Assembly: GCF_003334385.1 (NCBI RefSeq)
Contig: NZ_QOWN01000004.1
Source: Escherichia coli
GTDB taxonomy: Bacteria > Pseudomonadota > Gammaproteobacteria > Enterobacterales > Enterobacteriaceae
Strand: one strand, 5' to 3'
Length of the DNA: 64,000 nt
The stretch's first letter is position 1, and each line of letters opens with the position of its first letter. The notes under the pieces were generated by a model. The model worked only from the letters and a program-made list of their open reading frames with translations, was not told the DNA's origin and did not search any database. Below are positions 60,866 to 60,913 of this stretch, one piece after another. Both the position numbers and the translations under genes were made by a program.

Positions 60866-60913
60866 TGATAGCGCTATCACAAAGATTGGTAGCGTTATCA
60901 GATAGCGCTATCA
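60866..60913. promoter_or_regulatory. Candidate LacI-family operators: palindrome TGATAGCGCTATCA repeated 2-3 times in the divergent promoter region
   Basis: Perfect 14-bp palindrome at 60866-60879, a second copy of the 12-bp core GATAGCGCTATC at ~60901-60912, and a degenerate copy TGGTAGCGTTATCA between them. Confidence 0.5.

Follow-up and report, generated by a model that had tools for sequence, protein, structure and literature searches.

Pseudomonas GntR controls a gluconate kinase and permease (gntR/gnuK/gntP), and its repression is released by an effector. DNase I footprints in Pseudomonas plecoglossicida cover GAGACAGCGCTATCTTAC, AAGGTAGCGCTGTCTCAG and AAAGACAGCGCTGTCTCG, and the footprinted operators are given as GACAGCGCTATCT and GGTAGCGCTGTCT (PMC12195362). 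They are also given as N-TAGCGCT, the P. aeruginosa GntR consensus being AC-N-AAG-N-TAGCGCT (PMC5902321). The locus described here lies in a 64,000-nucleotide stretch of Escherichia coli DNA (the window), and contains three 14-bp sites, O1, O2 and O3, between a LacI-family regulator gene and a PTS operon. These sites have the same palindromic core, AGCGCT, and the same flanks, (A/G)T...A(T/C), as those of Pseudomonas GntR. The two regulators belong to the same subgroup by best HMM match, each diverges from its target genes, and effector-released repression may, by analogy, also be common to both. The systems differ in their targets, a gluconate kinase and permease in Pseudomonas and an L-ascorbate-family PTS here, and in the outer half-site bases, which are AGACAG in the Pseudomonas sites and TGATAG in the present ones. 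Pseudomonas GntR sites overlap -10 elements, whereas the sites described here are predicted to lie upstream of a CRP site.

Distances between neighbouring sites of LacI-family regulators peak at 13, 22 and 32 bp, an overlapping pair 13 bp apart being typical of GntR and its orthologues, and the 21+13 pattern of the present locus fits this double-site signature (PMC4052901). A 13-bp pair was found in 29 of the loci collected in this work. The E. coli GntR/IdnR system (gntKU, gntT, idn) differs from the present locus in both half-site sequence and regulon. The half-sites of E. coli GntR are TGTTAC, two positions away from TGATAG.

A second point of comparison is the gal operon, where CRP binds at -41.5 and GalR at OE, -60.5 relative to galP1, and where GalR acts through the alpha-CTD to repress P1 by contact inhibition (PMC4693257). 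At the present locus a LacI-family operator would likewise stand directly upstream of a predicted class II CRP site, with O3 placed at -58.5 and CRP at -41.5, and by analogy with gal this layout suggests contact inhibition or anti-activation at the PTS promoter. The likeness is incomplete: there are three clustered sites here compared with a single external one in gal, and the positions here are predicted rather than mapped. No internal operator or looping partner of the gal kind was found at the locus.

The transporter of the UlaR/UlaABC L-ascorbate system in E. coli K-12 is of the same PTS family as the present one, and in both IIA, IIB and IIC are separate proteins. UlaR is a DeoR-type regulator, in contrast to the LacI-type regulator of the present locus, where the IIC protein also scores under the UlaA cutoff and no ulaDEFG-type genes are linked. 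A LacI-family counterpart, 'SgaR', appears in RegPrecise as a predicted regulog of sga-like PTS genes, with STM2345 as its Enterobacteriales representative (VV20859, AHA_0174 and MS0148 are further regulators assigned to it) and members in Enterobacteriales (9 of 12 genomes), Vibrionales, Aeromonadales and Pasteurellales. The regulog is a computational prediction, and ascorbate-6-P is its putative effector. In the SgaR regulog a LacI-family gene diverges from the PTS operon, as it does here, and the taxonomic spread matches that of the present genes, so the present regulator may belong to SgaR. Salmonella proteins were not among the best 120 regulator homologues, which reached down to about 45% identity, and a search with the IIC protein returned only E. 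coli-like clusters and none from Salmonella. STM2345 has since been studied as PagR, a Salmonella regulator of SPI-2. Experimental work on the E. coli genes or their operators was not found in the literature, nor was the exact palindrome found in searchable texts.

A cluster of three palindromic sites

The original prediction was that a perfect 14-bp palindrome occurs two to three times within about 50 bp, between a LacI-family regulator gene and a PTS operon. The setting is confirmed, the regulator gene and the IIA, IIB and IIC genes being encoded on opposite strands on either side of the sites (Table 1), and three sites are indeed present. However, only O1 is a perfect palindrome, while O2 and O3 are near copies of it. 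The two divergent units are 270 bp apart, and the sites lie between them at centre-to-centre distances of 21 bp (O1 to O2) and 13 bp (O2 to O3), so that base 60900 is common to O2 and O3. All three have a central CG at positions 7-8, where the halves TGATAGC and GCTATCA meet. The EIIA gene is preceded by the ribosome-binding site GGGAG at 60975-60979.

Table 1. Coordinates of the regulator gene, the PTS operon and the control elements between them (positions in the window)
Feature	Position	Strand	Description	Basis
LacI-family regulator gene, GntR/IdnR-like subgroup	59689-60720	-	343 aa	ORF and NCBIfam
Predicted sigma-70 promoter of regulator gene	60818-60847	-	-35 TTGGCT 60847-60842, 18-nt spacer, -10 TACAAT 60823-60818	
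O1, regulator-proximal	60866-60879	.	TGATAGCGCTATCA, perfect palindrome, 0 mismatches	Sequence reading and pattern search
O2, middle	60887-60900	.	TGGTAGCGTTATCA, 2 mismatches	Sequence reading and pattern search
O3, PTS-proximal	60900-60913	.	AGATAGCGCTATCA, 1 mismatch	Sequence reading and pattern search
CRP-like site	60913-60934	.	AAATGCGACAATCATCACATTA	Read from sequence
Predicted PTS -10 hexamer	60953-60958	+	TACTCT	Conserved spacing from CRP-like site
PTS EIIA gene	60991-61434	+	147 aa	ORF; Pfam PTS_EIIA_2 in Vibrio orthologue
PTS EIIB gene	61450-61737	+	95 aa	
PTS EIIC gene	61750-63006	+	418 aa, L-ascorbate (SgaT/UlaA) family	NF006919, 628 bits (cutoff 380)
Terminator-like hairpin and T-run closing the three-gene operon	63048-63076	+	Hairpin 63048-63066	

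Besides O1, O2 and O3, the 64-kb window holds no match to the perfect palindrome at up to 2 mismatches. Base composition leads one to expect 0.20 such matches per 64 kb, against the three found within 48 bp, and given one match the chance of two more within 50 bp is about 1e-7; the cluster is therefore real and non-random. In dinucleotide shuffles, the count observed at up to 3 mismatches was reached in none of 100. An origin by chance or as a repeat element is ruled out by these cluster statistics together with the lack of copies elsewhere. A structured RNA in the intergenic region was also considered and rejected, as an Rfam search of the whole window at gathering thresholds returned nothing in 59238-64000.

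The regulator

The regulator has its best NCBIfam match in the Pseudomonas-type GntR model (276.6 bits, cutoff 400), followed by IdnR (206.4 bits, cutoff 500), and it scores 174 bits against the E. coli GntR model (cutoff 433). As it lies below every equivalog cutoff, it is best described as an unnamed relative of the gluconate and ketogluconate sensors, and its effector is not transferable from these families by homology. Pfam LacI helix-turn-helix (HTH) and Peripla_BP domains (PF00356, PF00532, PF13377) are found on regulator homologues. Among solved structures the nearest to the regulator are 3d8u and 3h5o, the latter labelled 'GntR'. None of the four genes, regulator included, had a PADLOC match that would indicate a role in a defence system.

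LacI has 360 residues and bears a C-terminal tetramerisation helix. The regulator is shorter, and its alignment to LacI (query residues 13-314 against LacI 4-304) ends before that helix, so we expect it to act as dimers. Across 14 orthologues, whose overall identity falls to 47%, the HTH segment G23-R34 is invariant, as are the hinge positions A62, G63 and L65, the last being the 'leucine lever' position; this matches the invariance of the operator and of its central CG.

The PTS and its possible substrate

The EIIC protein matches Pfam EIIC-GAT and scores well above the cutoff of the L-ascorbate family model, but against the UlaA model NF009549 it reaches 590.8 bits, under the cutoff of 890, and is thus not UlaA itself. 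Genes of the ula catabolic pathway are not linked to the four genes in E. coli or in most other genera examined, and no catabolic genes of any kind were found attached to the PTS operon in E. coli. The proposal of L-ascorbate as inducer draws solely on the family name of the transporter. The regulator, for its part, resembles sensors of gluconate, 6-phosphogluconate and ketogluconates, and our guess, offered only as such, is that the inducer is a sugar acid, a keto-acid or a phosphate of one of these. Gluconate or ketogluconate uptake or kinase genes are absent as targets, the only linked ones being those for PTS IIA, IIB and IIC.

The EIIC protein is far better conserved than its partners. 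Between E. coli and Photobacterium the identity is 88% for IIC, 76% for IIB, 62% for IIA and 50% for the regulator, and the Vibrio IIC clusters are also 88% identical to the E. coli protein. This points to either an unusually strong constraint on the transporter or separate transfer histories. In one Pectobacterium locus (L070), the gene that follows IIC encodes a protein whose N-terminal sequence, judged by eye, is transaldolase/Fsa-like.

Conservation of the cassette and its operators

An alignment of regulator orthologues was scanned against one genome per bacterial species, which yielded 80 loci. They come from Buttiauxella, Dryocola, Yersinia, Citrobacter, Cedecea, Klebsiella sp., Brenneria, Photorhabdus, Moellerella, Providencia, Proteus, Edwardsiella, Pectobacterium, Samsonia, Erwinia, Winslowiella and Photobacterium. 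The regulator gene diverges from IIA-IIB-IIC in all 80. The genes next to this arrangement vary, for example pta-ackA in Yersinia ruckeri and a pst-like operon in Buttiauxella, with others elsewhere, and the recurrence of the same four genes amid differing neighbours indicates a cassette that moves as a unit. In Y. ruckeri (L010) the cassette adjoins nudix/GST-type genes as well as pta-ackA, and in Proteus (L064) it adjoins nudix/GST-type genes; the pta-ackA/nudix/GST neighbourhood is presumably the chromosomal position of STM2340-2345.

A palindrome is found 130-190 bp upstream of the regulator start in every locus that has a regulator of 343-350 aa (50-90% identical). At no more than 1 mismatch there are 111 matches in 25,319 bp of intergenic sequence, against a single one in the 1,121,116 bp outside it. 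In an alignment of the intergenic region from 11 genera the mean column identity is 55%, and nearly all intergenic columns that show no variation belong to O1 or O3; O1 is invariant together with its flanks, reading GTGATAGCGCTATCATT on the regulator strand. The existence of the sites, their non-randomness, the conservation of their sequence, spacing and position, and their travel with the regulator gene are computed results.

Spacing between sites is 34 bp in 35 loci, 21+13 bp in 28, 22+22 bp in three and 22+13 bp in one. O2 is mostly perfect in Enterobacteriaceae, Yersinia, Brenneria, Photobacterium and Vibrio, and is absent from the Morganellaceae and Edwardsiella loci examined. The idea that O2 is a lineage-specific enteric addition was dropped, since it is also present in Photobacterium and Vibrio. 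Vibrio parahaemolyticus carries the same cassette with the array O1(+21)O2(+13)O3, even with a regulator that is only about 48% identical. The alternative layout, with three sites 22+22 bp apart, was seen at L023 (6737-6794), L024 (2249-2306) and L032 (6785-6842); all sites are perfect in the first two and have 0-1 mismatch in the third, and the CRP-like site is shifted 13 bp further from the last operator. In Yersinia pestis (L020, 5783-6634) IIB is truncated and no IIC was found, while the regulator and operators persist; the cassette appears to be decaying there.

Loci of the Pectobacterium/Erwinia type (L069-L078 from Pectobacterium and Samsonia, together with L066, L079 and L080) encode an N-terminally extended regulator of about 396 aa, about 55% identical, with an altered recognition region (SRVMRKP; hinge NQEASQL) in which the hinge leucine is kept. 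A scan at up to 2 mismatches had suggested that the operator is absent from these loci, a view that was dropped once a variant with the same core was recognised. The PTS-proximal site there reads AG(A/G/T)TAGCGCTA(A/T)CT, with the core TAGCGCTA kept and the outer positions changed, and the other two sites are degenerate, leaving one clear operator. The altered regulator head would thus track the altered outer operator bases, a co-variation that is anecdotal but consistent.

Predicted promoters and a CRP-like site

The predicted promoter of the regulator gene matches the sigma-70 consensus at 9 of 12 positions in our scan. Its -35 hexamer is conserved in Enterobacteriaceae and Yersinia, its -10 hexamer in these and in Brenneria. 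Transcription of the regulator gene is predicted to start near 60811, which would place O1 at -61.5.

The same consensus scan gave no promoter at threshold on the plus strand. The CRP-like site has the core TGCGA-N6-TCACA at 60916-60931 (centre 60923.5; 9 of 10 positions matched), and 2 nt separate this core from O3. Of 81 regions, 60 have a CRP-like site scoring at least 8/10 next to the PTS-proximal operator, and in these 60 it almost always begins 16 nt after the start of O3. In 45 of them TCACA is followed, at a distance of exactly 21 nt, by a TAnnCT hexamer, most often as TACTCT (27), and otherwise as TATCCT (8), TACCCT (4), TACGCT (4) or other variants (2). Taking this hexamer as the -10 element, the PTS transcript would start near 60965, with CRP centred at -41.5, O3 at -58.5, O2 at -71.5 and O1 at -92.5, and the PTS side is predicted to have the geometry of a class II CRP-dependent promoter.

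The pattern is not uniform. Proteus, Providencia, Moellerella and Edwardsiella have a weak CRP-like site, and in Photorhabdus the spacing from CRP to -10 fails. In Photorhabdus loci (L044, 6720-6802; also L038, L040, L041 and L045) the stretch that separates the CRP-like site from the start codon of IIA contains a tandem repeat with a 7-nt unit, ACAGAAG as read on the PTS strand. There are about 10 copies in L044 and the number varies by species; the repeat could alter the distance from promoter to gene and in this way modulate expression.

A model of regulation

The palindromes are almost certainly DNA-binding sites of the adjacent LacI-family, GntR-like regulator. The proposal that they are its LacI/GalR-type operators finds support, as far as sequence can provide it, in the conservation footprint, the co-inheritance of sites and regulator gene, the invariant DNA-reading head and the GntR-like core. 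That they are cognate operators exerting negative control we regard as very probable. Binding itself, the sign of regulation, the transcription starts, the inducer and any cooperativity are what we infer from the computed patterns.

In the model that we favour, dimers of the regulator, which is GntR/IdnR/PtxS-like, would read the TGATAGCGCTATCA sites through the HTH, with the hinge-helix leucine placed at the central CG. When inducer is lacking, the bound regulator would keep the IIA-IIB-IIC operon off, and the promoter of the regulator gene would probably be limited by the same operators. The regulator would be released by a sugar acid, or the phosphate of one, supplied through the PTS, after which cAMP-CRP at the adjoining site would activate a weak PTS promoter. 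As the operators precede the core promoter and directly adjoin the CRP site, repression would be expected to work by exclusion of CRP, by a block of the alpha-CTD as with GalR at gal OE, or by both, rather than by covering the -10 and -35 elements. The scheme as a whole, comprising cognate operators, repression from upstream of a class II CRP site, release by inducer and activation by CRP, seems to us likely, while its specific upstream anti-activation geometry has, in our estimate, somewhat better than an even chance of being correct.

Cooperative repression was also part of the original prediction, and for sites 21-22 bp apart cooperativity is plausible from the spacing. O2 and O3, at 13 bp, are probably not filled independently; the occupancy problem posed by sites this close is discussed in PMC4052901.

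The same cognate operators might instead act by classical occlusion, if the true PTS promoter overlapped O2/O3, or if TATCAT in O1 served as the -10 element of the regulator gene. Most LacI-family repressors work in this way, hexamers resembling -10 elements (TATCAA, TATCAT) do occur within the palindrome, and the Pseudomonas GntR operators, as noted, overlap such elements. A promoter that would serve combines the -35 hexamer TTGGTA (60886-60891), a 17-nt spacer and the -10 hexamer TATCAA (60909-60914). However, no promoter reached the scan threshold on that strand, TATCAA lacks the conserved final T, and Morganellaceae and Edwardsiella do not conserve the O2 region that would supply the -35 hexamer. 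With such a start, the CRP-like site, which is strong and conserved, would fall at about +2, an unusual position and a repressing one, and the spacing from CRP to TAnnCT kept in 45 loci favours a promoter further downstream. We therefore consider occlusion unlikely, and anti-activation or contact inhibition, as read from the arrangement of sites, the more likely mechanism.

The adjacent regulator could also bind these sites as an activator or dual regulator, comparable to IdnR/GntH or to GalR at galP2. IdnR, which activates the idn genes, is the second-best family match of the regulator, and the predicted centres of -58.5 on the PTS side and -61.5 on the regulator side are typical class I activator positions. 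GalR bound at OE is likewise an activator of P2 (PMC4693257). Against this, LacI-family factors that use perfect palindromes with a central CG are in large majority inducer-released repressors, the abutment of O3 and the CRP site with 2 nt between cores favours competition, and a regulator promoter so close to consensus (9/12) needs no activator; activation is accordingly rated as quite improbable. It is harder still to credit that the sites serve another host factor, by cross-talk with chromosomal GntR/IdnR, or that they are non-regulatory, arising by chance, from a mobile repeat or in connection with restriction sites (AGCGCT). The motif is of the GntR-type class, and cross-recognition between GntR and IdnR is documented in E. 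coli (PMC4052901). But in two orders, and amid unrelated neighbours, the sites accompany the regulator gene, the 1.12 Mb of flanking DNA is nearly devoid of them (one match at up to 1 mismatch), the window has no further copies and chance is excluded. The half-site of E. coli GntR also departs from TGATAG at two positions, and explanations of this group are very improbable.

A broader reading, which goes beyond the repression model and which we hold only tentatively and with considerable doubt, is that the cassette is a horizontally mobile, self-contained unit of regulator and PTS for a sugar acid, governed at both promoters by a three-operator anti-activation switch resembling GalR at OE. If this is true, the product of transport would either require no enzymes of its own or act chiefly as a signal. 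The switch would combine the 13-bp pair, whose two sites exclude each other, with the 21-bp pair, all upstream of a class II CRP site. The relative STM2345/PagR would further suggest that regulators of this type can be recruited to virulence control.

The operator set itself is ordinary, though very cleanly conserved; it follows textbook LacI-family logic and changes no concept. The analysis supplies a precise and testable operator motif and a map of the control region for a PTS cassette that is uncharacterised and is widespread among enteric pathogens. Roughly one in four complete E. coli genomes carries the cassette, uropathogenic CFT073 and enteroaggregative 042 among them, and it also occurs in Yersinia, Proteus, Providencia, Photorhabdus, Edwardsiella, Pectobacterium and V. 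parahaemolyticus. With a reporter built on the operator region, the inducer and substrate could be screened for directly.

Genomic setting in E. coli

Of 5426 complete E. coli genomes, 1350 have a match to the 3.5-kb cassette, 936 of them at 80% coverage or more, and the intergenic region matches 942 genomes, those of CFT073 and 042 among them. Three E. coli sequence variants of the region were compared, and they are identical across O1, O2 and O3, the degenerate O2 included. The cassette lies about 38 kb from the tRNA-Leu(CAA) gene leuX (22525-22609), a classic site of island integration, and the DNA from leuX to the end of the window looks like a mosaic accessory island. In strain GE3 and in CFT073 this region holds IS66, IS3 and IS2 elements, with cdiA/cdiB in CFT073 and fec genes beyond.

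Insertion sequence remnants and a group II intron surround the cassette. The intron, recognised by Rfam matches to D1-D4 and domain V, occupies 57441-59238, about 450 bp from the stop codon of the regulator gene, and its reverse transcriptase/maturase reading frame is broken, leaving the two ORFs 57892-58338 and 58242-59162. Remnants of IS21 and IS110 lie near the intron, as annotated in strain GE3. Elsewhere in the window, at 15353-15524 and 16358-16552, there are two adjoining matches to naRNA4, a REP-type nucleoid-associated RNA, and a full-length match to the Yersinia sRNA Ysr276; the naRNA4 and Ysr276 matches are above the Rfam gathering scores.
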